The notes under the pieces: generated by a model | What the model saw: only the letters and a program-made list of their open reading frames with translations | Database searches by the model: none | Told to the model about the DNA's origin: nothing | Part shown: positions 317-29,600 of the stretch, piece after piece | Layout: every line of letters starts with the position of its first letter | Position numbering within the stretch: the first letter of the stretch is position 1 | Source: Nonlabens ponticola | Lineage (GTDB): Bacteria > Bacteroidota > Bacteroidia > Flavobacteriales > Flavobacteriaceae | DNA: 32,000 nucleotides | Direction: 5' to 3' | Assembly (NCBI RefSeq): GCF_003966335.1 | Contig: NZ_CP034549.1 | Location: 240,001-272,000, forward strand | Made by a program: the position numbers and the translations under genes

Positions 317-330
317 GCTTTCGCGAAAGC
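317..330. repeat. iterated palindrome copy 1, GCTTTCGCGAAAGC (perfect 14-mer), intergenic
   Basis: Read directly from the sequence; it is its own reverse complement. It sits in the divergent intergenic region, 101 nt from the minus-strand ATG (215) and 113 nt upstream of the ATG at 444. The right flank is GTAAC. Confidence 0.95.
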
Positions 331-443
331 GTAACTTTCCTACAAAAATTTAAAAACGAATAACCCGTGATCAAAGTCAATATTACCCTTTAATTAACAT
401 GGCATGTTTGACAAGCGATTTACCTTAAACCAAAAATTTAACC

Positions 444-1808
444 ATGTCCATATTTTCCAAGATTAAAGGAACACTCAACCTGATGAAAAAGGTTGATCTA
501 GATAAACTTGCAGCTCTTAATGAAAAGGTTGATTTGAGTAAAGTGATGGATACCGTAGGCAATCTAGACGATAGACAGCTGGCAGGATTGATGAAGATGT
601 TATCGACCAAAAAGAAAAAGGGACAAAGCAAACTACCTCCTATTGATGGTGATTTTTATGATTTGAGTCTCAAATTGACACCTGAACAACGCGAGGTGCA
701 ACTCAAGGTGCGCAATTTTATGGAAGATGAGGTGCAGCCTATCGCAAATGACTACTGGAATCGTGCTGAGTTCCCACACGATCTAATCCCAAAAATGGCA
801 GAATTAAACATAGCAGGAATTGCTTATCAAGGTTATGGATGTCCAGGAATGGATTTTGTAACTGAAGGCATAATTGCTGAGGAAATTGCGCGTGTTGATG
901 TATCGATAAGCACCTTTTTTGGTGTGCACAGTGGTCTTGCCATGGGATCTATTTATCTATGTGGCAGTGAAGAGCAAAAACAAGAATGGTTACCGCAAAT
1001 GGCACGCATGGAAAAAATTGGTGCTTTTGGCCTGACGGAGCCTGATACAGGAAGCGGCATCGCTGGTGGCATGGACACTACCTGTCGTCGTGATGGTGAC
1101 AACTGGATCTTAAATGGTCAAAAAAAGTGGATAGGCAACGCCACATTTGCGGATGTGATCATAATCTGGGCGCGTGATGAAGAATCCAATCAAGTAAAAG
1201 GATTTATCGTACGCAAGGGTAATCCCAACTTTCACGCAGAGAAAATGGAGGATAAAATGGCCTTGCGTATCGTACAAAACGCTATTATAACCATGACCAA
1301 TTGTGTAGTACCAGAAAGTGATAGACTGCAAGAAGCGCATAACTTTAAAAGCACTGCCGAAGTGCTGCGTATGACGCGCGCTGGCGTGGCGTGGCAGGCC
1401 GTAGGTTGCGCTCGTGGTGCTTATGAGAATGCACTTAAGTACACAAAGAAGCGAGAGCAATTCGGTAGGCCTATTGCCAGTTTCCAGCTGGTACAAAATC
1501 ATCTTGTGGAAATGCTATCAAACCTTACCAGCATGCAAACGCTATGCTTTAGATTATCCGAAATGCAGGATCAAGAAATTTTAAAAGACGAGCACGCATC
1601 ACTCGCTAAGGTTATATGTTCCATGCGTACTCGAGACATCGTGTCCAGAGCACGCGAAGTTATGGGCGGTAATGGTATCCTATTAGAACACAATGTCGCC
1701 CGATTTGTTGCCGATGCTGAAGCCATTTACAGCTATGAAGGAACTAAGGAAATCAATAGCCTTATCGTGGGTCGTGCAATTACTGGTTATAGTGCGTTTG
1801 TGAGTTAG
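444..1808 (+). CDS. acyl-CoA dehydrogenase (glutaryl-CoA dehydrogenase-like)
   Basis: 454-aa ORF with ACAD-family signatures: GAFGLTEPDTGSG, WIGNATFADV, and the C-terminal YEGTKEINSLIVGRAITG. A Lys-rich N-terminal extension of about 65 aa precedes the ACAD fold, so the true start could be internal. Confidence 0.85.
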   Translation: MSIFSKIKGTLNLMKKVDLDKLAALNEKVDLSKVMDTVGNLDDRQLAGLMKMLSTKKKKGQSKLPPIDGDFYDLSLKLTPEQREVQLKVRNFMEDEVQPIANDYWNRAEFPHDLIPKMAELNIAGIAYQGYGCPGMDFVTEGIIAEEIARVDVSISTFFGVHSGLAMGSIYLCGSEEQKQEWLPQMARMEKIGAFGLTEPDTGSGIAGGMDTTCRRDGDNWILNGQKKWIGNATFADVIIIWARDEESNQVKGFIVRKGNPNFHAEKMEDKMALRIVQNAIITMTNCVVPESDRLQEAHNFKSTAEVLRMTRAGVAWQAVGCARGAYENALKYTKKREQFGRPIASFQLVQNHLVEMLSNLTSMQTLCFRLSEMQDQEILKDEHASLAKVICSMRTRDIVSRAREVMGGNGILLEHNVARFVADAEAIYSYEGTKEINSLIVGRAITGYSAFVS

Positions 1809-1850
1809 AGTGTGTAAGTGTTATTGATTATGACATCGTTTATAATCATA

Positions 1851-1880
1851 AAAAGGGGTAGAATTCATTCTGCCCCTTTT
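1851..1880 (+). terminator. rho-independent terminator after the acyl-CoA dehydrogenase gene
   Basis: AAAAGGGGTAGAATTCATTCTGCCCCTTTT has a GC-rich stem (GGGGTAGAA/TTCTGCCCC with one G-U pair) followed by TTTT. It lies 43 nt after the stop. Confidence 0.6.
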
Positions 1881-1970
1881 AATTTGTATCAAATCAATTT
1901 CCTTATTACTAACGTTATGACAATTATGACTTAAGGACGACTTAATCATAAGTGAAGTGACCTAGATAAA

Positions 1971-1997
1971 TCATAGCTTTAAAACAAAAAGCTATGA
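1971..1997 (+). promoter_or_regulatory. 10-bp perfect inverted repeat/hairpin that includes the start codon of the aldehyde dehydrogenase gene
   Basis: TCATAGCTTT (1971-1980) pairs perfectly with AAAGCTATGA (1988-1997), with a 7-nt loop AAAACAA. The ATG at 1994-1996 lies in the 3' arm. Confidence 0.35.
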
Positions 1998-3376: not shown

Positions 3377-3398
3377 ACCTTGTGAATCAAAATTATTA

Positions 3399-3428
3399 GG
3401 GGCAGAATTAATTCTGCTCCTTTTCTTT
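3399..3428. terminator. bidirectional rho-independent terminator between convergent genes
   Basis: GGGGCAGAATTAATTCTGCTCC hairpin followed by TTTTCTTT on the + strand, with AATAATTTT on the - strand. It sits between the stop at 3376 (+) and the stop at 3436 (-). Confidence 0.6.
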
Positions 3429-3435
3429 GTTGTAA

Positions 3436-3774: not shown

Positions 3775-4394
3775 CCGTAGATTTTTATGGAAGTAAAGAT
3801 AGCAATCGCCATGGTTAGCGCTGCCAGCGTGTAATGAATTTTCTTGGCAAAAGTGGCACTGTCAAAACCCCATTTCTTCACATAAATCGCGTACAATGTA
3901 AGCATGGAGAATGTACCAATAGTTGCTCCTGCGATGAATAAATGCGCCATGGGAAATTTGAATTCAAACATTCCACGACCTGCTAGAAAAGAGCTAAAAC
4001 CTATGTAAAAAGGAATAGGAAAAATATTAAGTGCGCTGAGCATCACACCTTGGCCAAATAACTTGTAATCTGATTTATCAACCGGCTTGACTTCTGGACC
4101 GCTGTCTAACCTTGCTCTGATAAAAAAGAATATAGAAAGAGCTACAAAAACGATTACCGCAAACTTCTCTAACGTGGTGGAGACCTCGGGACTTTCACTA
4201 ATTAATCGCGAAAAAAAGACACCAATATAAACTTGAGCGATAACTACAAGAGATGCGCCTGCCGCAAAAATCATGGCCGCACGCCTGCCTTGATTCACGC
4301 TTACCTTAGCTGCTGTGAGATTAAGCAAACCTGGTGGTATTACACCAACGAGCCCGATCCCAATCCCAAAAAGAAGATGCAGCAAGCTACTCAT
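3771..4394 (-). CDS. LysE/RhtB-family amino-acid exporter-like membrane protein
   Basis: 207-aa ORF with about 6 hydrophobic helices. The N-terminal GxxGVIPPGLLNL motif resembles LysE-type translocators. It has 4-nt ATGA overlaps with both neighbours. Confidence 0.55.
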   Translation of the reverse strand: MSSLLHLLFGIGIGLVGVIPPGLLNLTAAKVSVNQGRRAAMIFAAGASLVVIAQVYIGVFFSRLISESPEVSTTLEKFAVIVFVALSIFFFIRARLDSGPEVKPVDKSDYKLFGQGVMLSALNIFPIPFYIGFSSFLAGRGMFEFKFPMAHLFIAGATIGTFSMLTLYAIYVKKWGFDSATFAKKIHYTLAALTMAIAIFTSIKIYG

Positions 4395-5062
4395 GGACGC
4401 AATTTGAACTTCATGTAGGTAATAGCCTTAGATTGTTCAAGATACTGTTTTTCATAAAATGTTTGCGTCTCGACCACATCGCCTGATGCCTCAGTATTAG
4501 TGTAGATATCATGGTGAGCGTACAATATTTCCTCGCCTAATCCTTCTAGTAATCCCAGCGTGTAGCCATGCATGTATTCTGAGTCTGTCTTGAGGTGCAC
4601 GATGCCACCAGGTTTGAGGATCTTGCGGTATTTGTCTAGAAATGATGGGTTGGTCATGCGGTGTTTAGTACGCTTATATTTGATCTGTGGATCTGGAAAA
4701 GTGATCCATATTTCTGATATTTCAGCTTTCGCGAAAGCGTAATCCACCAACTCAATCTGCGTTCTCAAGAAAGCTGCGTTGTCCAGTTCCTGCTCTACTG
4801 CAGTCTTTGCACCACGCCAGAAGCGTGCACCCTTAATATCAATCCCGATAAAATTGCGATCCGGATATTTTTGAGCCAGCGCAACCGTGTACTCGCCTTT
4901 ACCGCAACCCAACTCTAACGTGATGGGCTTATCGTTACCGAAGAACTCATTCCACTTACCGCGATGCTTAAAATCTGCTATGATTTCCTCGCGTGTAGGC
5001 TGTACTACATTTTGAAAAGTCTCATTCTCACGGAATCTCTTCATTTTATTTTTACTTCCCAA
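4391..5062 (-). CDS. trmB: tRNA (guanine46-N7)-methyltransferase
   Basis: 223-aa ORF with the SAM-binding LELGCGKGEY motif, IGIDIKG, and FPDPQ...K..KHR, as in TrmB. Confidence 0.9.
   Translation of the reverse strand: MGSKNKMKRFRENETFQNVVQPTREEIIADFKHRGKWNEFFGNDKPITLELGCGKGEYTVALAQKYPDRNFIGIDIKGARFWRGAKTAVEQELDNAAFLRTQIELVDYAFAKAEISEIWITFPDPQIKYKRTKHRMTNPSFLDKYRKILKPGGIVHLKTDSEYMHGYTLGLLEGLGEEILYAHHDIYTNTEASGDVVETQTFYEKQYLEQSKAITYMKFKLRP
4725..4738. repeat. iterated palindrome copy 2, GCTTTCGCGAAAGC (perfect), inside trmB
   Basis: Read directly from the sequence. On the coding (-) strand it is read TAC GCT TTC GCG AAA GCT = YAFAKA. Confidence 0.95.
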
Positions 5063-6240: not shown

Positions 6241-7232
6241 ATGCGCTCGTCATGAGCCTCAATGATGTGTTTAACTATTGCCAGACCTAGACCACTGCCG
6301 CCTTCTTTTCTGGATCCTGTGCGATCTACCCTAAAGAAACGCTCAAACAATCGTGGTATGTGAGTCTTATCAATTCCTTCGCCATTGTCGGTAACTCGCA
6401 CGATGACTTTGTTATTGATAAGGTCTTCTATCGCAACCTCAGTCGTGCCGTTTGTTTTACCGTACTTAATAGAATTAACTAGTAGGTTTGCTAATACTTG
6501 CTGGATACGCTCCTCATCAGCGTGAACCATGATAGGTTCTGTATAAACCATGTCAAATAGTAGTGATATCTTCTTTTTGGCAGCTTTCATCTCAAACTGA
6601 TCAAAAACGTGACGCACGAGATCAATGATATCAAAATCGGTTTTATCAAGGTTTAAATCACCCAATTCCAACTTGGTAATCATATCCATGTCATTGACGA
6701 TGTAGGTCAATCGGTCTACTCCTTTTTGCGCACGAGCTAGGTATTTTTTACGGATAGCCTTGTCTTTATGAGCGCCTTCTATTAGTGTGTCGATATATCC
6801 TTGTACCGTAAAAAGTGGTGTCTTGAGCTCGTGAGATATATTTCCTAAAAATTCTTTACGATAGGCCTCTCGCACTTTGAGCGTTTCAATCTCAATCTTT
6901 TTATTACGGGCAAATTCTTCTACCTGCCTGGTGAGTGTGCGCATGTCTGTAGCGATCTCGCGGTCGGCAAAATTGGTGTTCTCCAGCAGCGACACGTCTT
7001 CATAAATCTTCTTGATCCTTCGGTAGATAAACTTTTGCGCACGGTATTGAATGACAAGAAAGCAAATAATAAAAATGATGACCGTACTGATTCCTACAAG
7101 CCACCATGCATCACTCGTTTGAAAGATAAAAGCCACAATAGCTAGAACCATTGCATTGATAAGCGTGATAAACACACTGGAGCGCAAGGCAAAACGGTAG
7201 CTGCGTCTAGGTGCCGTTGTTCTAGATGACAT
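6123..7232 (-). CDS. sensor histidine kinase (two TM helices with a minimal external loop, no obvious sensor domain)
   Basis: H-box FLGNISHELKTPL, N-box LLVNSIKYG, G-boxes VTDNGEGI and GGSGLGLAIVKHI. The N-terminal TM pair is separated by only about 7 residues. It overlaps the response regulator gene by 11 nt. Confidence 0.88.
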   Translation of the reverse strand: MSSRTTAPRRSYRFALRSSVFITLINAMVLAIVAFIFQTSDAWWLVGISTVIIFIICFLVIQYRAQKFIYRRIKKIYEDVSLLENTNFADREIATDMRTLTRQVEEFARNKKIEIETLKVREAYRKEFLGNISHELKTPLFTVQGYIDTLIEGAHKDKAIRKKYLARAQKGVDRLTYIVNDMDMITKLELGDLNLDKTDFDIIDLVRHVFDQFEMKAAKKKISLLFDMVYTEPIMVHADEERIQQVLANLLVNSIKYGKTNGTTEVAIEDLINNKVIVRVTDNGEGIDKTHIPRLFERFFRVDRTGSRKEGGSGLGLAIVKHIIEAHDERIYVDSELGIGSEFSFTLEKVSSSRLDSEIPGSISDPKPA

Positions 7233-7908
7233 ATTTATAGCCTACACCCTTTACGGTCTTGAATTTTTTATCGCCTAGCTTTTCACGCAGTTTACGTATG
7301 TGCACATCGATGGTTCTACCACCTACAACTACCTCATTACCCCAAACTACATCGAGGATTTCCTCGCGCTTAAAAACCTTGCCAGGCTGGCTGGTTAATA
7401 AGGAGAGTAATTCAAATTCCTTTCTAGGCAGTATGAGCTCCTTTTTCTTCCAGAAAATCTTGTATTGATCACGGTCAATGATCAAATCACCTAGATTCTT
7501 GACATTACCACTCTCATCTGTTTCTACCACGTTGCGGCGCAATAGAGATTTCACTTTTGACACGAGCAGTCTTGGTTTTACAGGTTTGGTTATGTAATCA
7601 TCTGCACCAGCATCAAACCCGGCGATCATACTGTAGTCCTCACCACGAGCTGTAAGAAATGTGATGATTGTTTTATCAAGTTCTGGCAATTTGCGCATTT
7701 TTTCACAGGCCTCGATGCCGTCCATAACGGGCATCATGACATCCAATATCACGAGATCTGGAATCTTCTTCTTAGCTTTTTTGACTGCTTCCTCGCCATT
7801 CTCGGCAGTGTACACCTGATAGCCTTCATTTTTAAGATTATAGCTTACGATCTCAAGAATATCTGGCTCGTCATCAACTAATAGGATTTTGGCTTTCTGC
7901 TCTTTCAT
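7222..7908 (-). CDS. OmpR/PhoB-family response regulator
   Basis: Receiver domain (LLVDDEPDI, VILDVMMPVMDG, ITKPV) plus a winged-helix output domain (TIDVHIRKLREKL...VKGVGYK). Confidence 0.92.
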   Translation of the reverse strand: MKEQKAKILLVDDEPDILEIVSYNLKNEGYQVYTAENGEEAVKKAKKKIPDLVILDVMMPVMDGIEACEKMRKLPELDKTIITFLTARGEDYSMIAGFDAGADDYITKPVKPRLLVSKVKSLLRRNVVETDESGNVKNLGDLIIDRDQYKIFWKKKELILPRKEFELLSLLTSQPGKVFKREEILDVVWGNEVVVGGRTIDVHIRKLREKLGDKKFKTVKGVGYKYVI

Positions 7909-8026: not shown

Positions 8027-8040
8027 GCTTTCGCGAAAGC
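8027..8040. repeat. iterated palindrome copy 3, GCTTTCGCGAAAGC (perfect), intergenic
   Basis: Read directly from the sequence. It sits in the divergent intergenic region, 118 nt from the regulator ATG (7908) and 111 nt upstream of the ATG at 8152. Confidence 0.95.
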
Positions 8041-12505: not shown

Positions 12506-12560
12506 TAGGCTTTAGCCGTCTTACCCATTCTTGTCGTCCACGTTTGTGTATTTTTACTGC

Positions 12561-13562
12561 ATGATTCTAGTCACAGGAGCCACTGGTATGGTAGGCGGCC
12601 ATTTATTGTACCGCTTTCGCGAAAGCGCAACCCAAATCAAAGCGATCTACAGGAATCCAGCATCTATAGATAAAACACGCACCATCTTTAATTCTTATCG
12701 CAAGGGTGATGCAGCGCTGGTTGATAATTTTAAGTGGGTTCCTGGCGATTTACTGGACTTGCCTAGCCTGGAAGATGCGATGGAAGGTATTGATCAAGTT
12801 TATCATTGTGCGGCTATATTGGGCGATGCTAGTTTTGACAAGATGAAACAGGTAAACGTGACTGGCACAAAGTATCTTGTGGATATCGCGATTGCTCGTG
12901 GCATCTCTAAATTTTGCTATGTAAGTAGCATTGCTACTCTTGCTAATCCTGTTGCAGGTAAGTCCATTACCGAAGATGATTTTTTCAATCCAGATGCACT
13001 TAATACAGATTATGCTATATCAAAGTATGGCGGTGAGATGGAAGTATGGCGTGCCTCTCAAGAAGATCTTGATGTGGTAATCGTCAATCCTGGAGTGATA
13101 TTAGGAGAAGGTGATTATAACAATGGTAGTGGCAAATTATGGAGCGCAAGTGCAGCGACACAGCCTTTTTACACGAGTGGCAGCAGTGGTTTTGTAGATG
13201 TGAGAGATGTTGCGGAGATTATGCAGCTATTGATGAATAGCGATATTAAAAATGAACGATTCACGCTGGTGGCAGATAATGTTGAATTCAAGAAAATACT
13301 AGAAAACATATCCATCGCCATCCATAGTAAAAAGCCATCCATCTTACTTACCAAATGGATGTTGTACACAGCTTGGATTCTAGGTAAGATTCCTAGCTGG
13401 TTAGGGATCATGAAAGGCCTTTCTAGAGCTGAAATAATAACCTACACATCCAACTCTAAGTACGATAATGAAAAGGTAGAAGAACAGCTATCCTATAAGT
13501 TTACTGCTTTAAAAAATAGTATTGAACGAGTTTCAAGTCATTTTCTTGAGAACAAAGAGTAA
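12561..13562 (+). CDS. NAD-dependent epimerase/dehydratase (extended SDR)
   Basis: The start is placed at MILVTGATGMVGGHL (Rossmann GxxGxxG). The catalytic YxxxK is present as YAISK. The track start (TTG 12531) adds 10 unlikely residues. Confidence 0.8.
   Translation: MILVTGATGMVGGHLLYRFRESATQIKAIYRNPASIDKTRTIFNSYRKGDAALVDNFKWVPGDLLDLPSLEDAMEGIDQVYHCAAILGDASFDKMKQVNVTGTKYLVDIAIARGISKFCYVSSIATLANPVAGKSITEDDFFNPDALNTDYAISKYGGEMEVWRASQEDLDVVIVNPGVILGEGDYNNGSGKLWSASAATQPFYTSGSSGFVDVRDVAEIMQLLMNSDIKNERFTLVADNVEFKKILENISIAIHSKKPSILLTKWMLYTAWILGKIPSWLGIMKGLSRAEIITYTSNSKYDNEKVEEQLSYKFTALKNSIERVSSHFLENKE
12613..12626. repeat. iterated palindrome copy 4, GCTTTCGCGAAAGC (perfect), inside the epimerase gene
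   Basis: Read directly from the sequence. In the gene frame it is read CGC TTT CGC GAA AGC = RFRES. Confidence 0.95.
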
Positions 13563-16795: not shown

Positions 16796-17536
16796 ATGAA
16801 AGTGAAAACAATTTTAGTTTCCCAGCCTGAACCTAAAATGGAAAATTCACCTTATCAAAGTCTCGTTGATCGGACTAAGGTGAAAATAGATTTCCGCTCT
16901 TTTATCCATGTAGAAGGCGTTCCTTCTAAGGAAGTGCGCGAGCAAAAAGTAGATCTTTCTAAGTTTAGTGCGATCATCCTTACCAGCCGTAATAGCGTTG
17001 ACCACTTCTTCCGTGTGGCAGAAGAAATGCGTTTCAAAATCCCAGATTCACTCAAGTACTTTTGTCAAAGTGAAGCCGTTGCCTATTATCTGCAGAAATA
17101 TGTAGTGTATAGAAAACGTAAAATTTATGTAGGTAAGAGAACTTTTGCAGAGCTTTTACCACTCATCAAGAAACACAAAAACGAGACATTCCTACTACCT
17201 AGCTCCGACAAGTTAAAGGATCAGGTACCAGAATTACTCGATGGCCTCACTATTAAGTGGAAGGCAGCTACATTTTTCAGAACGGTCATTAGCGACCTTT
17301 CTGACCTTGCAGATGTTAAGTACGATGTGTTAGTATTCTTTAGCCCTAGCGGTATTGAGAGTCTATTTCAAAACTTTCCAGAATTTACTCAGGATGAGAC
17401 TCGTATTGCCGTATTTGGTAACACAACAAGCCAAGCTGCTAAGGATAAAGGACTGCGCATTGATATACAAGCGCCTACTCCTAAGTCACCATCAATGACC
17501 ATGGCGATAGAGAATTATATTAAAGAATTGAGTTAA
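16796..17536 (+). CDS. hemD: uroporphyrinogen-III synthase-like protein
   Basis: 246-aa ORF. The N-terminus (ILVSQPEPK..SPY) and two-lobed repeat pattern are typical of Bacteroidetes HemD-family proteins. Confidence 0.65.
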   Translation: MKVKTILVSQPEPKMENSPYQSLVDRTKVKIDFRSFIHVEGVPSKEVREQKVDLSKFSAIILTSRNSVDHFFRVAEEMRFKIPDSLKYFCQSEAVAYYLQKYVVYRKRKIYVGKRTFAELLPLIKKHKNETFLLPSSDKLKDQVPELLDGLTIKWKAATFFRTVISDLSDLADVKYDVLVFFSPSGIESLFQNFPEFTQDETRIAVFGNTTSQAAKDKGLRIDIQAPTPKSPSMTMAIENYIKELS

Positions 17537-17554
17537 AAGGTTTGTCGTTGTTAC

Positions 17555-17568
17555 TCTTTCGCGAAAGC
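17555..17568. repeat. iterated palindrome copy 5, TCTTTCGCGAAAGC (perfect 12-mer core 17556-17567), intergenic
   Basis: Read directly from the sequence. It lies 18 nt after the hemD stop and 25 nt before the bidirectional terminator. The flanks TTAC...GTAA extend the symmetry. Confidence 0.9.
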
Positions 17569-17593
17569 GTAATCCTTCAAATTCACCAGAATA

Positions 17594-17623
17594 AAAAAGG
17601 TCTCTATCGCTAGAGACCTTTTT
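17594..17623. terminator. bidirectional rho-independent terminator between hemD and pckA
   Basis: AAAAAGGTCTCTA-TCGC-TAGAGACCTTTTT forms a perfect 13-bp stem with A/T runs on both sides. Confidence 0.75.
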
Positions 17624-17642
17624 CAGTTTATAATTGATTTTC

Positions 17643-19250
17643 TTATTTGAGTGGGCCGCCGTTGATGATTTCATCACTTGCCTGTGATTCAAATTTCTTG
17701 AAATTCTCACGGAAAAACGTTGTCAGCTTTGCCGCCGTCTCATAATAACCAGTATCATTATTCCACGATTTTCTTGGACTCAACACCTCGGTAGGTACAT
17801 TAGGACAAGTACGTGGTTGTGCCAGTCCAAACATTGAGTGTACATGGTAGTTATCCTTGTTAGCCGCTTCAAGGGAACCATCAAGCGCTGCAGCAATCAT
17901 CGCGCGAGTGTATTTAAGTTTCATACGGTGACCAACACCATATGGGCCGCCAGTCCAGCCTGTGTTTACTAACCATACTGTCACATCATTCTCCTTCATT
18001 TTCTCGCTCAACATCTCAGCATACTTAGTAGGATGCAGTGGCATAAATGGTGCTCCAAAACATGCTGAAAAACTAGGAACCGGCTCATTAACGCCAGCCT
18101 CGGTACCAGCGACCTTGGCTGTATAACCACTTATAAAATGGTAGGCGGCTTGACCTGGAGTTAATTTTGAAATAGGAGGCAATACACCAAAGGCATCTGC
18201 CGTCAAGAAAAATATATTCTTGGGATTCTTGCCTATACTAGGTTGTCTAATATTATCGATATGGTGAATCGGGTAACTGACTCTTGTGTTTTGAGTGATG
18301 CTGGTATCAGCAAAATCAACTTTACCATCATCTTTTAACTTGACGTTTTCTAATATCGCGCCTGGTTTGATGGCATTGAAAATTTCTGGCTCGTGCTCCT
18401 GGCTTAGATTAATAACCTTTGCATAACAACCTCCTTCAAAATTGAATACCTCGTTAGTTGAAGTCCAGCCGTGTTCATCATCACCTATCAATTCCCGATC
18501 AGGATCAGTTGATAGTGTTGTTTTACCGGTACCACTCAAACCAAAGAAGATAGCGGTGTTGCCGTCCTTACCAACGTTTGCACTGCAATGCATAGGCAAG
18601 GTATTTTTCTCAGTTGGTAAAATGAAATTGAGCGCGCTAAAAATTCCTTTCTTGATCTCGCCCGTGTAACCTGTACCACCTATTAGGGCAATCTTATCAG
18701 TAAAATTGAGAATGGCAAAATTATGCTGGCGAGTGCGATCCCTTACAGGATCTGCCATGAAACCTGGTGCATTGATAACCGTCCACTCTGGAGAGAAGTT
18801 CTCTAATTGTTGATCGTCTGGTCTTAAAAACATATTATAAGCAAACATGTTTGACCATGGATACTCATTAATAACTCTCAAATTGAGCTTGTAATCCTCG
18901 TGCGCACATGCATAAGCATCACGAACAAATATTTCCTTGCCATCGAGGTATTCAATCACTCGTTTATGAAGATTGTCAAAGTCTTTCTTGTTAAAAGGCA
19001 AGTTGATATTTCCCCACCAAATATGATCTTGAGTAAGGTTATCCTTGACAATGAATCGATCCATAGGTGATCGACCTGTAAACTCTCCAGTATTAACCGC
19101 GAGCGTGCCATTGGCAGTTTCTTTACCGTTGTAGGAATCTACGGTAATTTGCTGCAACGCATCAGGTGATAATTGATAATTAATTTTTGATTTAGTAATC
19201 CCGTATTTTTCCAACGAAATCGATTGCGTACTTAAGGCGTGTGAACCCAT
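17643..19250 (-). CDS. pckA: phosphoenolpyruvate carboxykinase (ATP)
   Basis: 535-aa ORF with kinase-1a GLSGTGKTTLS, plus GGTGYTGEIKKG and LIGDDEHGW motifs. Confidence 0.95.
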   Translation of the reverse strand: MGSHALSTQSISLEKYGITKSKINYQLSPDALQQITVDSYNGKETANGTLAVNTGEFTGRSPMDRFIVKDNLTQDHIWWGNINLPFNKKDFDNLHKRVIEYLDGKEIFVRDAYACAHEDYKLNLRVINEYPWSNMFAYNMFLRPDDQQLENFSPEWTVINAPGFMADPVRDRTRQHNFAILNFTDKIALIGGTGYTGEIKKGIFSALNFILPTEKNTLPMHCSANVGKDGNTAIFFGLSGTGKTTLSTDPDRELIGDDEHGWTSTNEVFNFEGGCYAKVINLSQEHEPEIFNAIKPGAILENVKLKDDGKVDFADTSITQNTRVSYPIHHIDNIRQPSIGKNPKNIFFLTADAFGVLPPISKLTPGQAAYHFISGYTAKVAGTEAGVNEPVPSFSACFGAPFMPLHPTKYAEMLSEKMKENDVTVWLVNTGWTGGPYGVGHRMKLKYTRAMIAAALDGSLEAANKDNYHVHSMFGLAQPRTCPNVPTEVLSPRKSWNNDTGYYETAAKLTTFFRENFKKFESQASDEIINGGPLK

Positions 19251-19755: not shown

Positions 19756-21120
19756 ATGCGACACATTTTGATAATAGGTGCTGGAAAATCAACAGGAGTA
19801 CTGGTAGATTATTTGGTTAGCAAATCGGTTGAGTATGATCTACATCTTACCATTGCTGATAAACAACTGTCCAGCGCACAAAACCTAGCAGGAAACAACG
19901 AGCGCACCACAGCCATTGAACTTGACATCTTCAAACCAGAACCGCGTCGCAGGCAGGTAAAAGAAGCAGATATAGTTATATCAATGCTACCAGCTCGATA
20001 CCATATAGAGGTTGCCCGTGATTGTATTGAGTTTGAAAAAAACATGGTGACTGCTAGCTATGTAAGTAAAGAGATGCAAGAACTGGATCAACAGGCACGA
20101 GATAACAATCTCATATTTATGAATGAGATAGGTGTTGATCCAGGCATTGATCACATGAGCGCCATGCAAGTCATTGATCGCATTAGGGATCAAGGTGGTC
20201 GCATGCTATTGTTTGAATCTTTCACTGGTGGATTAGTCGCACCACAGGATGACAATAATTTGTGGAATTACAAATTCACGTGGAATCCACGCAACGTCGT
20301 GACTGCTGGTCAAGGTGGTGCGGCAAAGTTTATTCAAGAAGGTAAGTACAAGTACATACCTTATCACAGGCTATTCCGTCGTACGGAGTTTCTTGATGTT
20401 GAAGGTTATGGTAGGTTTGAGGCCTATGCTAATAGGAACAGTCTCAAATACCGTGAAGTCTACGGCCTAGAAGATATTGAGACCCTTTATCGCGGTACCA
20501 TGCGTCGAGTAGGTTACAGCAAGGCTTGGAATATGTTTGTGCAGCTAGGAATGACTGATGACACATACACGATGGATGGATCAGACCAGATGAGCTACAG
20601 GGATTTCATCAATAGCTTTTTACCGTACTCGCCTACTGACAGTGTGGAGCTGAAGCTAAGGCATGAATTGCGTATCGATCAGGATGATATCATGTGGGAA
20701 AAATTACTTGAACTAGATATTTTTAATCCTAATAAAATCGTTGGTATTACAGATGCGACACCAGCTCAAATACTTCAAAAAATTCTAGAAGATAAATGGA
20801 CGCTTCAGTCAAGAGAAAAAGACATGATCGTGATGTATCACAAGTTTGGTTATGAGATTAACGGACAAACACATCAAATAGACAGTACCATGGTTTGCAA
20901 AGGTGATGGTAATCGACAAACGGCAATGGCAAAAACAGTAGGCCTACCGGTAGCTATAGCAGCTCTTAGAATTCTTAACGGCGAGATTAAAGAATACGGT
21001 GTACAAATACCTATAAAATCAAGTATCTATAAACCTATTCTTGAAGAACTAGAAGAATATGGGATACGCTTCCGCGAAAGCGAAACTAAATATCTAGGCT
21101 ACAACGATCTCAATCTTTAA
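19756..21120 (+). CDS. saccharopine dehydrogenase family oxidoreductase
   Basis: 454-aa ORF with an N-terminal Rossmann motif IIGAGKSTG. The motifs NEIGVDPGIDHM and FTWNPRNVV are typical of saccharopine dehydrogenase/reductase. Confidence 0.85.
   Translation: MRHILIIGAGKSTGVLVDYLVSKSVEYDLHLTIADKQLSSAQNLAGNNERTTAIELDIFKPEPRRRQVKEADIVISMLPARYHIEVARDCIEFEKNMVTASYVSKEMQELDQQARDNNLIFMNEIGVDPGIDHMSAMQVIDRIRDQGGRMLLFESFTGGLVAPQDDNNLWNYKFTWNPRNVVTAGQGGAAKFIQEGKYKYIPYHRLFRRTEFLDVEGYGRFEAYANRNSLKYREVYGLEDIETLYRGTMRRVGYSKAWNMFVQLGMTDDTYTMDGSDQMSYRDFINSFLPYSPTDSVELKLRHELRIDQDDIMWEKLLELDIFNPNKIVGITDATPAQILQKILEDKWTLQSREKDMIVMYHKFGYEINGQTHQIDSTMVCKGDGNRQTAMAKTVGLPVAIAALRILNGEIKEYGVQIPIKSSIYKPILEELEEYGIRFRESETKYLGYNDLNL
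21068..21081. repeat. iterated palindrome copy 6, GCTTCCGCGAAAGC (one mismatch at 21072), inside the saccharopine dehydrogenase gene
   Basis: Read directly from the sequence. In the gene frame it is read CGC TTC CGC GAA AGC = RFRES, 36 nt before the stop codon. Confidence 0.8.
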
Positions 21121-21884: not shown

Positions 21885-23981
21885 TTATCGATCAAAGCTC
21901 CAGTTCATGATATCAGTCCTTAGACCAATGTTGAACCACGTAGTAGTTGCCTGCTGCACCTGTGCATTGTCCACTTGCGGATTCATATCACGATAAATAA
22001 ATTGACCATAGATTTTGAGGTTGCTCGCTGGATTTATCAAATAACCAGCCTCTAGCCTACCGTACATGATTGAAGCTGTATTTCCTTGTGCTAGCTCATT
22101 ACCATCGTCGGCGATTCTATCATCTTCGGTACGGTAGATATTACCACCGTAATAAGCATTATCGCCGCCTTGTAAAAAATCATAGCCGCGCTCACCATAT
22201 ATAAATTGACCGATGCCATACCAGCGATCTAGTGTGTATCGACCTATGAGCATCGCTTCATAAAAATTAGCACCCCAAGGATGTGCTAGTGCTTGATTGG
22301 TATTACCATAATTAAGCACAATGGTATTGTGGCTATAGGTATATGGACGCACTCGATTATATTCTGCCTGCAGGAATAGGTTGGGAATATTAAAGGCATT
22401 TTGATATTTTACACCTAGCTGGTAACCACTCTTATTCTGGTAGCTACCTTCACCACGTATTACAGATCCTGTGGCGAGCTCGTCTAGTACCAGTTGACCA
22501 TAACCTGTTACCCAATCACTGAATTTATATTTGGCAGTAGCGCCAATAAGTGCATTACCGCCACGAGATCCTGTCTCAAGTTCTACCGTTTGATAAAAAA
22601 TAACTGGATTAAGGTAGTTAAAGTCAAAGCCGCGACCGTTGTCGTCCTGCCACAAGACACTCTCAAAAACGCCCAGGGTCAATCTTTTGGTCGCGTTCCA
22701 GCTCAAGTAATGGTGCGTCATATACTTTGTTCTAAAGCTATCGTCTGCGGTGACTTCTGGTCGTACATCGCGCAAGGAAGTGTAAAGCACCGTGTAATCA
22801 ATTTTCCAGAACTTGGCATTTACTTTAAAATACGGGAACGGTTGTGAGTTATCACTTAGCACCAATGATCTGTATCCATCGCCTATAAAATGTTGTCCAT
22901 GACCCAATTGTAGATTAAAATATTTACTGGGTTTGTAGTTTATATAACCGGTGGCAACTGGGTAGTCATAAATGTTCTCACCGCCATCTTCTGCAATGCC
23001 GCGACCTGGCACTACGCCTGGATTACCACCATCGGGCGCCCTGCGAGTGATTTCTCTATTAAAGTACTGTGCAAATCGCCCTTGAGACTCTTGGATGGTA
23101 GCTCCAAAAGTTAGCTGTGAGCCCACGCCACCATTTAAATATACCAATCGAGTATTATTGAAGGTAGTCACGCCTTCACCACCGTCACGACCCAATTGCA
23201 AATCGACACCAGGATCTAGAACAAACCAATAATCCTTGCCGGCTACTTCAAAAAAATGCTCATTCCATAGCTTTTTTCCTAGCCAGCTATCTGACTCTTT
23301 GAGTAGGCTCTCACGCTCTGACTCAAGGTCAAAGTAATCGCTTACATATTCAAATGTATAAGGTTTCACCGCTGTGTGAGCATTGTTTCCCACCTTGTTC
23401 ATCGCTGCTTCATATCGATGGTATCTTTGGTAGGACATCGGGATCAACGCGTTAGAACGCAATTCTTGACCGTCATATTGATCTGATTGTATAGAGGTGT
23501 ATTCATTGTTAGCTTTCGCGAAAGCTAACTCATCACCATCATCCTGCACTCTAGTAATTTTATCATTATCCTCTATCCTGCTGAACGAGCCCGCAGCCGT
23601 CATAGGAACCTGCATGTTGACGGCAAATTGCATATAAGTGGGCTCACCGTTGTAGCTGGGTGGCGTGATAGCCGGTAAATTACCCATGGCATTTTCCAGC
23701 GCCGTCTTAACCTGTGCGTCGCGTGCGTCGATCAAAATAACATCAAAATCACCCTCACGATTCACCTCAAATCGTACGCTAGCATTTTGTTGACCCACAA
23801 CATTATTGGGATGCTGGTAGGCTTTTGATAAGGTTTGATAGAATTGCTTGTAGAAACAGTCTTCTAAAGATTCTCCAGTACGATTCTCGCAATCAGGAAA
23901 TATCGGGTAGCTCTCAATGGTTGATTGTGCATAGGTCGTTGTCGCGATGAACATGCAAAACACTAAAGCCTTAAAATTCAT
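21885..23981 (-). CDS. predicted outer-membrane protein with N-terminal TonB-C-like Cys-pair domain (RemB-like)
   Basis: 698-aa ORF with signal peptide MNFKALVFCMFIATTTYAQS. Residues ~20-130 share the YPxFPxC...C...F.V pattern of the two neighbouring TonB-like C-termini. The remainder is rich in alternating aromatic/Gly beta-strand-like segments. As far as I recall, F. johnsoniae remB (Fjoh_1657) lies four genes from sprA (Fjoh_1653), which fits this position. Confidence 0.55.
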   Translation of the reverse strand: MNFKALVFCMFIATTTYAQSTIESYPIFPDCENRTGESLEDCFYKQFYQTLSKAYQHPNNVVGQQNASVRFEVNREGDFDVILIDARDAQVKTALENAMGNLPAITPPSYNGEPTYMQFAVNMQVPMTAAGSFSRIEDNDKITRVQDDGDELAFAKANNEYTSIQSDQYDGQELRSNALIPMSYQRYHRYEAAMNKVGNNAHTAVKPYTFEYVSDYFDLESERESLLKESDSWLGKKLWNEHFFEVAGKDYWFVLDPGVDLQLGRDGGEGVTTFNNTRLVYLNGGVGSQLTFGATIQESQGRFAQYFNREITRRAPDGGNPGVVPGRGIAEDGGENIYDYPVATGYINYKPSKYFNLQLGHGQHFIGDGYRSLVLSDNSQPFPYFKVNAKFWKIDYTVLYTSLRDVRPEVTADDSFRTKYMTHHYLSWNATKRLTLGVFESVLWQDDNGRGFDFNYLNPVIFYQTVELETGSRGGNALIGATAKYKFSDWVTGYGQLVLDELATGSVIRGEGSYQNKSGYQLGVKYQNAFNIPNLFLQAEYNRVRPYTYSHNTIVLNYGNTNQALAHPWGANFYEAMLIGRYTLDRWYGIGQFIYGERGYDFLQGGDNAYYGGNIYRTEDDRIADDGNELAQGNTASIMYGRLEAGYLINPASNLKIYGQFIYRDMNPQVDNAQVQQATTTWFNIGLRTDIMNWSFDR
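23508..23529. repeat. iterated palindrome copy 7, extended to a perfect 22-bp palindrome GTTAGCTTTCGCGAAAGCTAAC, inside the RemB-like gene
   Basis: Read directly from the sequence; the 14-mer core is at 23512-23525. On the coding (-) strand it is read TTA GCT TTC GCG AAA GCT AAC = LAFAKAN. Confidence 0.95.
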
Positions 23982-24057: not shown

Positions 24058-24061
24058 TCAT

Positions 24062-24874: not shown

Positions 24875-24908
24875 AACTAATGGTTTTAAGATTATTAAAA
24901 CCAAGTCA

Positions 24909-24916: not shown

Positions 24917-24923
24917 ATACCAT

Positions 24924-24954: not shown

Positions 24955-24976
24955 AAAATATTGCGAAAACTATAAT

Positions 24977-25705: not shown

Positions 25706-25769
25706 GAGTAGTGTATTAAGTAGTGCTAAAAATATATAAATAGCGCTTGATAAAAAAGCACCGCATTGA

Positions 25770-26183: not shown

Positions 26184-26185
26184 GA

Positions 26186-26563
26186 TTACCCTACTAGCTC
26201 CTTGTAAGCCGCTGCGTCCATAAGGCCAGCAATTTGTGCCGTATCACTCATGGTCATCTTGATCATCCAGCCCATACCGTAAGGATCAGTATTCACCAGC
26301 TCAGGCTCATCTTCTAGCTCATCATTAAACTCAGTAATGGTTCCTGATAATGGTAAAAACAAATCAGATACTGTTTTAACAGCCTCAACGGTCCCAAAAA
26401 CTTCTTCTTGATCTAGAGTTTCGTCCAGCGTTTCTACCTCGACATATACGATGTCGCCTAGTTCACCTTGAGCAAAATCTGTGATACCTACAATTGCGGT
26501 ATCGCCTTCAATCTTAATCCACTCGTGATCTTTGGTATATTTTAATTCTGCTGGAATGTTCAT
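26186..26563 (-). CDS. gcvH: glycine cleavage system protein H
   Basis: 125-aa ORF with the lipoyl-lysine motif VEAVKTVSD and the N-terminal YTKDHEWI, typical of GcvH. Confidence 0.95.
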
Positions 26564-26581
26564 AGTGTTGATTTATGCTCG

Positions 26582-26589
26582 CAAATTTA
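26582..26589 (-). promoter_or_regulatory. candidate -7 promoter box TAAATTTG for gcvH
   Basis: The reverse complement of CAAATTTA matches TAnnTTTG, 18 nt upstream of the gcvH ATG, in the 60-bp gap after sprA. Confidence 0.35.
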
Positions 26590-26623
26590 ATTAACTATTG
26601 CGATTTGTAAGAAGCTAATTAAG

Positions 26624-29600
26624 TTAATTACCAAACGTATATCGCAACCTTATACCACTGCGTATAGTAGTTTGCGGGAAGGCTGTTGAGATCGCAAATT
26701 CAGAGAATGAATGGTCATAATAGAATATCGCTGTAAAGGCGCGGCTCAAGGCATATTCTGCAGTGAACTTTGCTCCATAAATAGTTTGTCCTGCAGTTGC
26801 CTGACTGTTCTCCAGATCTAAATATCTTATAATGGTTATGTTGTCTCTTATCGAGCCATCAAGTCTTAAATTAAGGTCACTCTTGATAACTTGACTACGA
26901 CCACCGATTTTTGTTTTGAACGGTACATCCTTGATGCGGTAACCTACACCTAAAATTAATTGGTTACTATTGATCTCAGTCAATAGATTGTTGTCAAAAC
27001 TCAATGAAATGGCGCGATCCCGTCTTAGCTCTGCGGCGATGGACATAGAATTCCTCATCTCAAAGTCCACTTTTAATAAAGGTGAGAATGACTCTACTAG
27101 ATTAACGTTAAAGAACAAATCTTCTGGCTTGAAATCACCATTTTGATTCAATGCTTGCTGATTTTGATCCTCATAAGCCAGACCACCGTTACCAGGCGAG
27201 AAATCAAGATTAGTCTGGAATCTATTGATCGTATATCCTGCTTGATATCCATGCTGTAAGGAGAAACGTTTGAATCGTTTCTTGAACCATTTAAGGTTCA
27301 TCAAGCCTGTGTACTTAATTTGCCAGTTAGGTAGAGGAATGTCACGCAATGCGTCGGTATCTTGATCATCTGCATCACGACCTTCATAAGCCGATAAGAA
27401 TGATGGTAACAGTACCTTTTGACTATTGCGACTAAAGCCCAATGGGAAACCTTGATCGTCCCGACCAAAATTATCATTGCCGTAAAACTCACGCGCCAAA
27501 CGATTTGCTACATCAATCCTATTCTCTCTAAACTGATTAAACGTCGTTGAATTATCGATGCTGTTATTACCAAAGGATGTACCTATCATGATGGTAGAAA
27601 TCTGGAAATTTCCAGAGGTCTGTGGCGTTAGTGATTGATAGGTTAGATCATCTGGATCTACCCGATAGTTCTCTTGGAAAAACTCTGTGTATTGTCGGTT
27701 TGCATTAAGATCAATCTTCAAATCTGGTAGCAGGTCAACATTAAATGTCAAGCCTAGTGTCCTGGATTCAGTCTCAGTATATTGCTCGTTGAAATCCTCA
27801 TAGAGCGTCAACCAGCCATTGCGAGCTGCTAGGTCTCGCACCTCTGCCTGGCTACCAAAGGTAAAACCGGTGGTAGGCTTGAGTGTCCCTATAAATCCTA
27901 CATCAGGCAAATAACCTGGTAAGAATATACCGTTTGCCTCTTCATAGTTAATGGTAGCACGCTTGACTGCGGTTAGTATCCCTACAAAGGTATTGTACGT
28001 TTTGTTAGCAAAATTCTCTTTAGGAATCTCTGGAACTTTAGCCTCTTCGCCTTCTTTACCTTCGGCGTCATCTTTTTTAGTAGGTAAGGTGTTTCTGGAT
28101 CTTCCTCGTTGTTTTTGCTGCTTCTTTTGGAGCTCTCTTCTAGCCTCGGCACCAAATTTCTTTTTCTCGAGACCTACATATGTGTAGAGTTTGCCCAGAT
28201 CCAACGTTCCGTTCCAGCGATGTGAATTATTATTGGATACGCTATTCCCTAGATTTGGGATGCCATCTAGTTGAGCAAATTGTTGTGAGTTACGCTGCCA
28301 TAAAAAGTCTGCAGTGTATGTGTAGGTAGCTTTCGCGAAAGCTAAAAAAGGAATCTTATCAAGAGGCAGCTGATACGTCGCGGCCAGGCGCTGAGTGTGT
28401 CGATCGGGTATACCTTCATCAAAAAAGTTGGTAAACAACGTATAATCCTCATCAATAGAGCCGTCATCGTCGTTAATGTAACTGCGCACCACACGATTGT
28501 TATTTGCAGCAAAGTTTATATTGAGTGAATTGGTCAAATCCCAATTGACTGCATATTGATTAGCTAAGGTGAAATTGCGATTTGTCAGCGGGTCAATCGC
28601 GATATTTTGCGCATCAGGAATACCATCACCGTTTAAATCTACTGGATTAGTATCCAGCTGTAAATCACGGAATGTCTGTGTGTTAAATTGACGTATGACG
28701 GAAGCACCAGCCGTAAAATTGTTAGGAAGCAGGTTGACGTTGAAATCCCTGACAAACTTGAGATAATCGCCGGCAAGCGTTGTGTCTGCATTCTTGAATG
28801 GCTCAACTACCAACTCTGGAAAAGCATAGTTATAGGTCGTATTGACATTTACCGATTGTGCCTTGAATTCTTCTATCTCAAAGTCTCGCTGATCGGTCTG
28901 ATTATACGAACCTGAGAAGACAAAATTCTCAATATCATAAGGCATAGGTTTCTTATCTCCAGTGCGCTGTTTAGTCACTCCTATAAGGTTGACGCTTTGT
29001 CTTCTGGTGTATTCTTCTGATTGTTCTTCGATGGCATCGCGCTCTTCATCGCTTTGAGCATTTGCTAATCTCGTGTCCAATTCAATATCCTCAAATTGTG
29101 GATCAAATTGCGGTGTTACCGTTTCTTCACCTATGCTATAAGAAAATGGAACTCTAAGACCCCATTTTTCTGGGAACAGCATTCCTAAGCTCATACTAGT
29201 GGTCACGTCATATTGCGTAACATTCTCACGATTGCGCTCGTTAGGGCCTTGCTCAATACTACCAAAACCTATGGTGCTTCTTCTACCAGTGGCGCTGACG
29301 GTTGCAAAGTCTGCCATGTTTGCATCCATGTTTAGAATAGCTGCGTATCCACCTTCATTTTTCAATCCTGATAACCTCAACTCATTGTACCAAACTTCAC
29401 CACATAAATCTTCTTTTTTTGAATTGCGTATTCCCAACATCACCGTACGCACATCACCAAAATTAGGATTACCCTTGATCCCGTAAATCTGCTGGTTAGG
29501 TCTGTTTGCTGCTGACTCATCAAGTTCAATCTCATTGAAGAAATTTTCTTCACTAGGATTGAGTGTGGGATCTCCTAGCACTCTCGACTTAATTTCTTGA

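Follow-up and report, generated by a model that had tools for sequence, protein, structure and literature searches.

The palindrome GCTTTCGCGAAAGC, present in eight copies (six exact, two with one mismatch) in the analysed stretch of 32,000 nucleotides of the N. ponticola chromosome (the window), is a highly iterated element specific to a clade of Flavobacteriaceae that includes Nonlabens and Dokdonia. Its copies are spaced by mutual exclusion: a second copy almost never occurs within ~1.5-2 kb of another, and farther out copies recur at a constant rate of ~1 per 4.5 kb. As alignments of orthologous loci show, the copies are not inserted but arise by point substitution in place, at partly matching sites both inside and outside of genes, and once formed they are kept invariant at orthologous positions despite 25-30% divergence around them. 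The element appears to be previously undescribed and resembles the "self-tags" in the DNA of bacteria capable of natural transformation; the best reading, to which we assign a probability of roughly 0.4, would be a protein-recognised chromosomal tag with an uptake-sequence-like mechanism, the benefit or drive of which saturates per ~2-kb neighbourhood.

The element, 14-16 nt long and perfectly palindromic, has the extended consensus TTnCGCTTTCGCGAAAGCGnAA, and GCTTTCGCGAAAGC itself represents a dyad-symmetric site within the 12-16 bp size range. Only 6.6e-5 exact occurrences are expected in the window, compared with the six observed, and a search allowing up to three mismatches yielded nine sites against a chance expectation of 1.2, the ninth of which (at 3567, three mismatches) resembles a chance match. 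All eight copies reported in a preliminary description of this DNA were recovered at the same positions (Table 1), and the DNA following the last of them is indeed empty, as no site occurs past 28342.

Table 1. Copies of the palindrome in the window, with their genomic context, encoded residues, and occurrence at orthologous positions elsewhere.
Positions	Copy	Context	Residues	Occurrence elsewhere
317..330	exact	intergenic, divergent region between a minus-strand lipoprotein-like gene (start near 215) and an acyl-CoA dehydrogenase gene (444)		
4725..4738	exact	within the gene for TrmB, tRNA (m7G) methyltransferase (4391-5062, minus)	A-F-A-K-A	common to L062 and N. tegetincola
8027..8040	exact	intergenic, between a response-regulator gene (7222-7908, minus) and a gene for a secreted T9SS-type protein (plus)		also in L122 and L123
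12613..12626	exact; extends to the complete 16-mer CGCTTTCGCGAAAGCG (12612-12627)	within an NAD-dependent epimerase gene (12531-13562, plus)	R-F-R-E-S	kept in 5/5 other Nonlabens loci
17555..17568	one mismatch, TCTTTCGCGAAAGC	intergenic, between convergent hemD (16796-17536, plus) and pckA (17643-19250, minus)		exact in 4 other Nonlabens loci; missing from N. spongiae and Lacinutrix
21068..21081	one mismatch, GCTTCCGCGAAAGC	3' end of a saccharopine dehydrogenase-like gene (19756-21120, plus)	R-F-R-E-S	exact in L121 and L123; Lacinutrix has I-I-F-K-E-K-E instead, without indel
23512..23525	exact	within the gene for a 698-aa outer-membrane-type protein (21885-23981, minus)	A-F-A-K-A	kept in L121-L124 and metagenome locus L171 (67% amino-acid identity)
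28329..28342	exact	within sprA (26624 to beyond 32000, minus)	A-F-A-K-A	kept in L121-L124

Recomputing the centre-to-centre gaps gave identical values (4408, 3302, 4586, 4942, 3513, 2444, and 4817 bp), with the mean of 4002, SD of 932, and CV of 0.233 on which the preliminary description had based its view of an almost regular spacing of ~4 kb. Eight uniformly placed points reach such a low CV with P = 4e-4, and a permutation check keeping the coding/non-coding split with a maximum of one copy per ORF gave P = 9e-4. For the six exact copies alone, the CV is 0.54 (P = 0.11); counting the two one-mismatch copies is justified, since a sister species (L121) has an exact copy at each of the two orthologous positions. 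The spacing in the window is non-random, as claimed, but the description as almost regular at ~4 kb goes too far, because the clade as a whole shows a ~2-kb exclusion followed by a flat hazard, without any period or upper bound. Likewise, the range of 2.4-5 kb seen for the gaps of the window does not hold clade-wide, since ~40-45% of the distances between exact copies are longer than 5 kb and gaps of 0.86-2.4 kb occur.

The clade-wide spacing was assessed in 163 independent, non-overlapping random blocks containing 251 copies, drawn from Dokdonia, Nonlabens, and genomic and metagenomic sequences related to them, and the resulting statistics describe these pooled relatives rather than the N. 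ponticola genome itself. In a scan of the genome collection, 91 of the 120 blocks sampled belonged to Dokdonia, Nonlabens, or uncultured Flavobacteriaceae, and 144 exact copies were present in 91 flavobacterial blocks (652 kb), where 9e-4 would be expected; the syntenic locus of Lacinutrix contains none. With ~1 copy per 5 kb of randomly sampled DNA, the total number of sites should be in the hundreds. Censored-gap analysis of the 163 blocks showed the gaps to be under-dispersed (gamma shape 2.8, CV ~0.6, p = 1.4e-13 against an exponential), with a gamma shape of ~6.7 in Nonlabens alone. The hazard of meeting the next copy amounts to 0.026 per kb over the first kb and 0.086 per kb over the second, and then stays flat and memoryless from 2 to 9 kb at ~0.22 per kb (range 0.21-0.30); only nine events fall within 1.5 kb, which corresponds to P = 1e-20 relative to the rate beyond 2 kb.

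The pattern in the window might still be a chance or post-hoc one among otherwise randomly placed copies, and some features would agree with this: the seven intervals were picked after looking, the exact copies alone do not depart significantly from randomness, and the pooled clade fit predicts less regular gaps than those seen in the window (P ~0.01). This explanation is largely refuted and retains very little probability, because the depletion of short gaps holds in two independent samples and in Dokdonia and Nonlabens separately, with p from 1e-5 to 1e-13 over samples and genera, and because a Poisson simulation with the identical sampling design gave a shape of 1.03 +/- 0.12 and never exceeded 1.43. 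The under-dispersion was replicated outside the window in blocks from genomes (shape 3.25, p = 2e-10) and from metagenomes (shape 2.3, p = 6e-5), the CV in the sampled relatives does not approach 1, and the gaps of the window are not filled by degenerate copies. A CV of 0.233 or less has P = 0.01-0.016 if gaps are drawn from the distribution fitted to the pooled data and P = 0.05-0.10 under the fit to Nonlabens only, which makes the window somewhat more evenly spaced than is usual for the clade. Note that its gaps are inherited from the Nonlabens ancestor and therefore amount to a single evolutionary sample; the value of 0.23 is a fairly regular, ancestrally inherited draw from an inhibited distribution and no evidence for a 4-kb ruler.

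The spacing is also independent of gene content, another point of the preliminary description that was borne out: five of the eight window copies lie inside genes, and a rule of one copy per gene is insufficient to account for the depletion of close pairs, as it would remove only 41% of the pairs closer than 1 kb and 10% of those 1-2 kb apart, compared with observed reductions of 88% and 61%, respectively. The suggestions made there also include the right class of explanation, namely a property of kb-scale segments; uptake-fragment coverage, nucleoid-protein loading, and tracts of repair or recombination had been named among them. Local gene regulation had been considered improbable and is excluded, since no association of the copies with promoters or terminators was found and copies occur within conserved coding sequence.

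Among the sampled copies, 72% are located within ORF spans and ~28% in intergenic DNA, the latter being ~3-fold enriched in copies, and those in coding sequence show a reading-frame bias of 55:23:18. Copies are shared at orthologous positions between species whose flanks are ~70-75% identical, and even orthologues with amino-acid identities down to ~50-55% still share sites; in alignments below 75% identity, 29 of 30 sites are exact or carry one mismatch. An indel-free origin is apparent where IIFKEKE of Lacinutrix aligns with IRFRESE of Nonlabens and where L122 has SAFAKAK in place of the SAFNQVE of the window, and the substitutions forming a copy sometimes alter amino acids. Within one and the same 4.6-kb gap, two lineage-specific gains were found at different positions.

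The sequence environment of the copies is symmetric as well: on either strand, the core is preceded on its 5' side by ~20 nt that are poor in C and rich in G/T, and the 3' flank is A/C-rich rather than T-rich. Core and skewed flanks together form a symmetric footprint of ~55-60 bp. The skew is a DNA-level feature, since non-coding copies show it as well as coding copies in each of the three frames. Single-strand folding of the copies yields -3 to -7 kcal/mol, in most cases no better than shuffled sequence, and the weakness of these hairpins favours recognition of the duplex.

These properties also bear on the proposal that the copies are repeats of a mobile or structural family, of the REP/BIME or MITE kind, or serve as transcription terminators or operators, which we consider hardly credible. 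The element shares with REP/BIME a palindromic sequence repeated in hundreds of copies, a sizeable fraction of the copies is intergenic, and some of these lie between convergent or divergent genes. However, the majority reside in conserved genes without indels relative to the orthologues, in contradiction to such an origin, and the two flanks of a copy are complementary only at the level of base composition (z = -1). REP/BIME are extragenic, imperfect, structure-forming, and RAYT-linked, whereas the copies of GCTTTCGCGAAAGC are mostly intragenic, fold weakly, and evolved in place; REP/BIME were rejected for these reasons and because close pairs have no gene in common, either between or beside them. 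Rfam contained no family matching the element. An intrinsic terminator was rejected on account of the A/C-rich 3' flank and of a terminator scan of 17400-17700, around the one copy that lies between convergent genes, which returned no call; no T-tract was seen beside the copies. An operator for a transcription factor was rejected as well, since most copies lie deep within coding sequence, as in sprA, trmB, and the epimerase gene.

A closer parallel is provided by HIP1 (GCGATCGC) of cyanobacteria, an iterated palindrome of coding and non-coding DNA that likewise spreads by point substitution and is maintained in orthologous alignments. By analogy, a sequence-specific DNA methyltransferase together with a mismatch-repair activity would convert near-matches into copies, whose abundance would be a by-product of biased repair. 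The GC-containing palindrome would suit this model, its core contains CGCG and TCGCGA as plausible methylation sites, and several of the one-mismatch variants represent CpG-type transitions. Yet biased repair acts site by site and irrespective of distance, so it fails to explain why 88% of the pairs expected below 1 kb are missing, and the specificity extends over all 14-16 nt, with TCGCGA and CGCG counts close to expectation outside the element. HIP1 differs in sequence and host phylum, consists of only 8 nt, and can reach densities of ~1 per kb or more, much denser than the GCTTTCGCGAAAGC element of these flavobacterial hosts, for which a ~2-kb exclusion zone is demonstrated. A HIP1-type origin appears improbable.

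An uptake-sequence-like mechanism is ranked as most likely. A symmetric, presumably dimeric protein would read the site as double-stranded DNA, and the process creating and maintaining the copies would work on kb-sized segments and saturate at one copy per segment. Biased uptake or recombination of tag-bearing fragments, as a molecular drive possibly assisted by selection, may restore mutated copies, and new ones would be favoured only where none is nearby, resulting in even spacing at the scale of the recombining fragments. Established uptake sequences are significantly evenly spaced, their spacing fits the size of conversion fragments, and molecular drive is expected to lead to an even distribution (PMC1939737, PMC2397512, PMC7811141); one study further describes those of coding regions as coevolving with proteomes (PMC2817400). 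A literature search retrieved no competence or uptake data for Nonlabens or Dokdonia.

Like the GCTTTCGCGAAAGC element, the USS of Pasteurellaceae and the DUS of Neisseriaceae are short, clade-specific, massively over-represented motifs of genic and intergenic DNA that combine a reading-frame bias with intergenic enrichment, arise by substitution, may change peptides, are conserved at orthologous positions, and are spaced more evenly than random, in the case of USS/DUS on the scale of recombination fragments. They differ in being asymmetric, shorter (9-12 nt), and ~4-5 times denser (~1 per 1.1-1.2 kb, compared with ~1 per 4.5-5 kb). Uptake sequences are flanked by AT-rich tracts, whereas the flanks observed here are strand-skewed and C-poor, for which we know of no counterpart among them. 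Moreover, the flat hazard beyond 2 kb counts against the uptake reading, since coverage selection predicts a rising hazard, as does the perfect 14-16 nt palindrome, which is more typical of the sites of dimeric chromosome-binding proteins. To our knowledge, no uptake sequence has been recognised in the Bacteroidota, the phylum of these hosts. The chances seem about even that Nonlabens and Dokdonia possess a chromosome-tagging system not described before, consisting of several hundred 16-22 bp palindromes with symmetric strand-skewed flanks, a putative dedicated dimeric protein, and ~2-kb exclusion zones, which would be either the first sequence-specific DNA-uptake/recombination tag of the phylum, and the first of palindromic form, or a dense nucleoid anchor of a new kind.

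The main rival to the uptake-like tag is such an anchor, in which the palindrome would be a high-affinity site for an intracellular chromosome organiser (a nucleoid-associated protein, a ParB/Noc-like or SMC-loading factor, or a topoisomerase anchor), each complex covering ~2 kb, with nearby sites redundant or harmful and selection on chromosome structure keeping the others. We regard this as rather unlikely, if clearly less so than a HIP1-type origin. The perfect dyad of 14-16 bp and the ~55-60 bp footprint would fit a dimeric duplex-binding protein that wraps the flanks, and the placement independent of gene orientation and content, the short-range exclusion, and the strong conservation of each individual site are all in line with it; a dyad-symmetric duplex site of 12-16 bp placed independently of genes is also common to parS/ParB, the Noc- and SlmA-binding sites, and matS/MatP. 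However, these known systems comprise tens of sites each with a regional bias, whereas the GCTTTCGCGAAAGC element apparently occurs in hundreds of copies at ~1 per 5 kb with local exclusion. Selection per anchor should be very weak among many hundreds, yet 29 of 30 sites survive a flank divergence of ~28%, and the hazard being flat beyond 2 kb means that long gaps are not disfavoured, unlike the prediction for loop-size control. The half-site geometry also differs, the spacing from TTTC to GAAA being 2 nt here and 4 nt in parS and Noc sites.

The window has the gene order acyl-CoA dehydrogenase, aldehyde dehydrogenase, trmB, a two-component system, tyrS, a dihydroorotase-like gene, hemD and pckA, followed by a saccharopine dehydrogenase-like gene, TonB-like genes, gcvH and sprA, which is identical in other Nonlabens species. 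The stretch is of Flavobacteriaceae chromosomal origin, and the PckA it encodes shows 100% identity to the N. ponticola protein. It carries the palindrome GCTTTCGCGAAAGC in exact copies and in two copies with one mismatch (see table). As the latter are exact at the orthologous positions of a sister species, they were counted as legitimate members of the set. Five copies lie within genes, and the three intergenic ones are located between divergent genes in two cases and between convergent genes in one. The inter-copy distances, their mean, SD and coefficient of variation (CV 0.233) given in the preliminary description, which took the copies to be spaced almost regularly at about 4 kb, were all recovered exactly. 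Such a low CV is obtained with P = 4e-4 when eight copies are placed uniformly in the window, and the regularity persists at P = 9e-4 in a permutation preserving the split between coding and non-coding copies and a maximum of one copy per ORF; the exact copies alone give weak evidence of regularity (P = 0.11). Because seven intervals selected post hoc are too few to carry the claim, independent data were sought.

Positions of the palindrome copies and of further features of the window (rc, reverse-complement coordinate; L121-L124, loci of other Nonlabens genomes)
Feature	Window position	Gene or location	Encoded residues or remark	Aligned position in syntenic Nonlabens loci
Exact copy	317	intergenic	top-strand flanks 297-316 (G/T-rich) and 331-350 (A/C-rich)	
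Exact copy	4725	trmB	AFAKA	
Exact copy	8027	intergenic		matched where covered
Exact copy	12613	epimerase	RFRES	matched
One-mismatch copy	17555	intergenic		matched; missing in N. spongiae
One-mismatch copy	21068	saccharopine dehydrogenase-like (19756-21120)	RFRES	matched
Exact copy	23512	698-aa outer-membrane-type protein	AFAKA; top-strand flanks 23490-23511 (G/T-rich) and 23526-23547 (A/C-rich)	matched
Exact copy	28329	sprA	AFAKA	matched
Further site	3567		sole other site at <=3 mismatches; fits chance	
Gained copy, equivalent	~10694	LuxE-like gene		L122, rc 2898
Gained copy, equivalent	~10501	LuxE-like gene		L123, rc 3121
Decaying copy, equivalent	~15525	glycosyltransferase gene	no trace in the window, L121 or L122	L124, rc 7888; L123, rc 8019
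Hairpin	1840-1885	directly 3' of acyl-CoA dehydrogenase stop codon		
Hairpin	3390-3435	directly 3' of aldehyde dehydrogenase stop codon	inverted relative to 1840-1885	
First ATG of sprA, as listed	31900	sprA	stop-free frame runs beyond window end; orthologues ~2400 aa	

A genome scan with one genome per species yielded at least 120 randomly sampled 8-kb blocks containing the motif, a sample assumed to be unbiased. Among the blocks listed, 91 came from Dokdonia, Nonlabens or uncultured Flavobacteriaceae and contained 144 exact copies, and the remaining 29 were background-like, high-GC single matches; a further 72 low-GC blocks came from a metagenome scan. No two blocks overlap, and inflation by duplicates was ruled out, as no stretch of at least 500 nt is common to any pair at an identity of 90% or above. 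With gaps measured from each copy to the next and right-censored at the block end, an exponential distribution is rejected for the genome blocks (gamma shape 3.25, P = 2e-10), the metagenome blocks (2.3, P = 6e-5) and both pooled (2.8, corresponding to a CV of 0.60, P = 1.4e-13), as well as for Dokdonia (3.3, P = 1.5e-5) and Nonlabens alone (6.7, 95% CI 3.2-13, P = 2.8e-5); the 11 gaps between exact copies in the Nonlabens blocks measure at least 2130 nt. The non-random spacing previously proposed thus holds outside the window as well, and pure chance is a highly improbable explanation of it. A bias of the censored-gap estimator was also ruled out, since Poisson simulations of the same design returned shapes of 1.03 +/- 0.12 that never exceeded 1.43. 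Note that the statistics pool many genomes of differing copy density, sampled as random blocks from relatives of N. ponticola, which renders the test conservative because density heterogeneity would push toward over-dispersion.

The piecewise hazard of meeting the next copy starts at 0.026 per kb over the first kb, rises to 0.086 per kb over the second, and from 2 kb to 9 kb it takes values of 0.21, 0.21, 0.26, 0.22 and 0.30 per kb. Within 1.5 kb of a copy, 9 next copies are observed against about 72 expected at the plateau rate (P = 1e-20). From the depletion of short gaps and the flat hazard it follows that each copy is surrounded by a zone of about 1.5-2 kb from which others are strongly excluded, and beyond which placement is memoryless. 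The more specific description of an almost regular spacing of about 4 kb goes too far, as there is neither a 4-kb period nor a ceiling and the hazard stays flat past 2 kb. Gaps above 5 kb account for about 44% between exact copies and about 37% when one-mismatch copies are counted, the far tail being poorly constrained by blocks of at most 15 kb. The window itself represents a regular-looking draw, for which the pooled fit gives P = 0.01-0.016 and the Nonlabens fit 0.05-0.10. Limiting each gene to a single copy is not a sufficient cause of the zone, since this would eliminate 41% of the pairs separated by 0-1 kb and 10% of those separated by 1-2 kb, compared to the observed 88% and 61%.

The evolution of individual copies was followed in the syntenic 21.6-kb pckA loci of five other Nonlabens genomes. 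At the matched sites the core is kept intact while the flanks are only 68-76% identical, and of 30 sites located in alignments with less than 75% identity, 29 are exact or one base off. Orthologues down to about 50-55% amino acid identity have sites in common; the trmB site is common to the window, a further locus (L062) and N. tegetincola, and the outer-membrane-protein site to the window and a metagenome contig. The sampled blocks included no orthologous pair linking Nonlabens with Dokdonia. The syntenic locus of Lacinutrix (L127) contains no copy even with two mismatches allowed. Where Nonlabens encodes IRFRESE, at the site in the saccharopine dehydrogenase-like gene, the Lacinutrix locus has IIFKEKE without any indel, indicating that the palindrome was written into the gene by amino-acid-changing substitutions; DNA-level selection or drive thus seems to have overridden the protein sequence there. 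L122 and L123 also each gained a copy independently in the LuxE-like gene, at codons that differ between the two. One of these gains converted SAF(N/P)(Q/K)(V/A) to SAFAKA, and both lie roughly midway in the ancestral 4.6-kb gap that separates the copies at 8027 and 12613. N. antarcticus and N. spongiae share the decaying copy in the glycosyltransferase gene, as GCTTTCGCAAAAGC in the former and TCTTTCGCAAAAGC in the latter. Non-coding sequence is enriched about 3-fold in copies, harboring 28% of the copies in about 10% of the bases, and coding copies prefer the AFAKA frame at a ratio of 55:23:18.

Among 149 copies, the core can be extended to CGCTTTCGCGAAAGCG, position -1 being C in 78% and position +14 being G in 80% of them, and more weakly to TTnCGC...GCGnAA. 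On each strand, C drops to 8% at 4-19 nt 5' of the core, compared to a background of 18.5%, and G and T are enriched; on the top strand, the sequence is G/T-rich to the left and A/C-rich to the right of the core. The bias has faded by 25-30 nt from the core. It is present in non-coding copies and in all three coding frames, and should therefore be regarded as a property of the DNA; in coding copies it resides at third codon positions, with T over C upstream and A over G downstream. Complementarity between the two flanks of one copy does not exceed that with shuffled flanks or with flanks of other copies (z = -1), and as single-stranded DNA the hairpins fold weakly, at -3 to -7 kcal/mol. Together, these two features point to recognition of the duplex by a symmetric protein with a putative footprint of about 55-60 bp, rather than to a hairpin, cruciform or terminator. 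The element matches no Rfam family, and a terminator or RNA element was rejected on this ground together with the weak hairpins and the lack of a terminator-like site at the convergent intergenic copy. A long inverted repeat or MITE was dismissed in view of the non-complementary flanks and of orthologues free of indels, and a RAYT-like cassette gene between close pairs because the intervening genes are unrelated, the 856- and 857-nt pairs being merely orthologous. A reading of the copies as mobile element, terminator or operator is accordingly the least probable of those considered. Restriction-site avoidance or association was excluded as well, with TCGCGA and CGCG counts outside the element near expectation.

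The descriptive findings given so far have good support. As to function, an uptake- or recombination-type self-tag is tentatively favored (probability roughly 0.4), because the palindrome shares population-genetic signatures with DNA uptake sequences, namely in-place accumulation, frame bias, intergenic enrichment, orthologous stability and clade specificity. A significantly even spacing of uptake sequences has long been noted (PMC1939737), the distances between them correspond to conversion-fragment length (PMC2397512), and a relatively even distribution is described as an expected result of drive from biased uptake (PMC7811141). Whatever process creates or maintains the copies should keep each of them and sense the distance to the next, and processes acting on DNA segments predict such a dependence. 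The main rival, a dense anchor for a nucleoid protein, appears possible though less probable than the self-tag: it accords better than an uptake tag with the palindrome's perfect dyad and symmetric footprint, but it hardly explains the strong conservation of each of hundreds of sites or why long gaps are not disfavored. Creation of the copies by repair drive, as in the cyanobacterial iterated palindrome HIP1, for which a site-by-site mutational or repair bias has been proposed as a model, seems unlikely, since such a bias predicts no distance dependence. The exclusion of about 2 kb combined with a flat hazard provides a quantitative signature that tells mechanisms acting on segments (uptake, recombination or domain anchoring) apart from a repair bias working site by site.

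To our knowledge, the well-known short genome-wide motifs evolving in place fall into only two classes, the uptake sequences of two proteobacterial families and HIP1 of cyanobacteria, and we know of no settled function of HIP1. Neither the palindrome sequence nor any iterated palindrome or uptake sequence of Dokdonia, Nonlabens or Flavobacteriaceae was found in the literature searched, which lies mostly outside the subscription journals. We rate the palindrome as a member of the clade-specific iterated motifs evolving in place, unusual in its palindromy, length, flank skew, quantified exclusion zone and Bacteroidota host. A third, independent case would be useful, since it occurs in culturable marine Flavobacteriaceae and offers a very specific core of 14-16 nt, a measurable exclusion distance, orthologous conservation overriding amino acid sequence and an unexplained symmetric flank skew, which together make the question of how such motifs are created tractable. 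If the palindrome is indeed an uptake tag, it would follow that abundant marine Bacteroidota undergo natural transformation that is sequence-selective, and the tag would supply a practical genetics handle for those carrying it.

Sporadic exact copies were also observed in Aquimarina (L071, L110), Leeuwenhoekiella (L030, L112), Altibacter (L107) and Flavobacterium sp. LPB0248 (L101), one of those in Aquimarina coding for the AFA-KA stretch in the end region of a signal peptide, at a site common to two species. The copies in these genera may represent a low-density system or only chance or relic copies. Matches in viral contigs are mostly single and chance-like, apart from a few low-GC IMG/VR contigs (L300, L336, L269, L283, L361, L364) with 2-3 copies spaced at 3-6.5 kb, which could be prophages or host fragments of the same clade, or phages carrying the host tag. 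Finally, the window contains two similar hairpins with 46-nt arms of 78% complementarity and a core of GGGGCAGAAT..ATTCTGCCCC with runs of A and T on either side, which look like a second, terminator-like repeat family.
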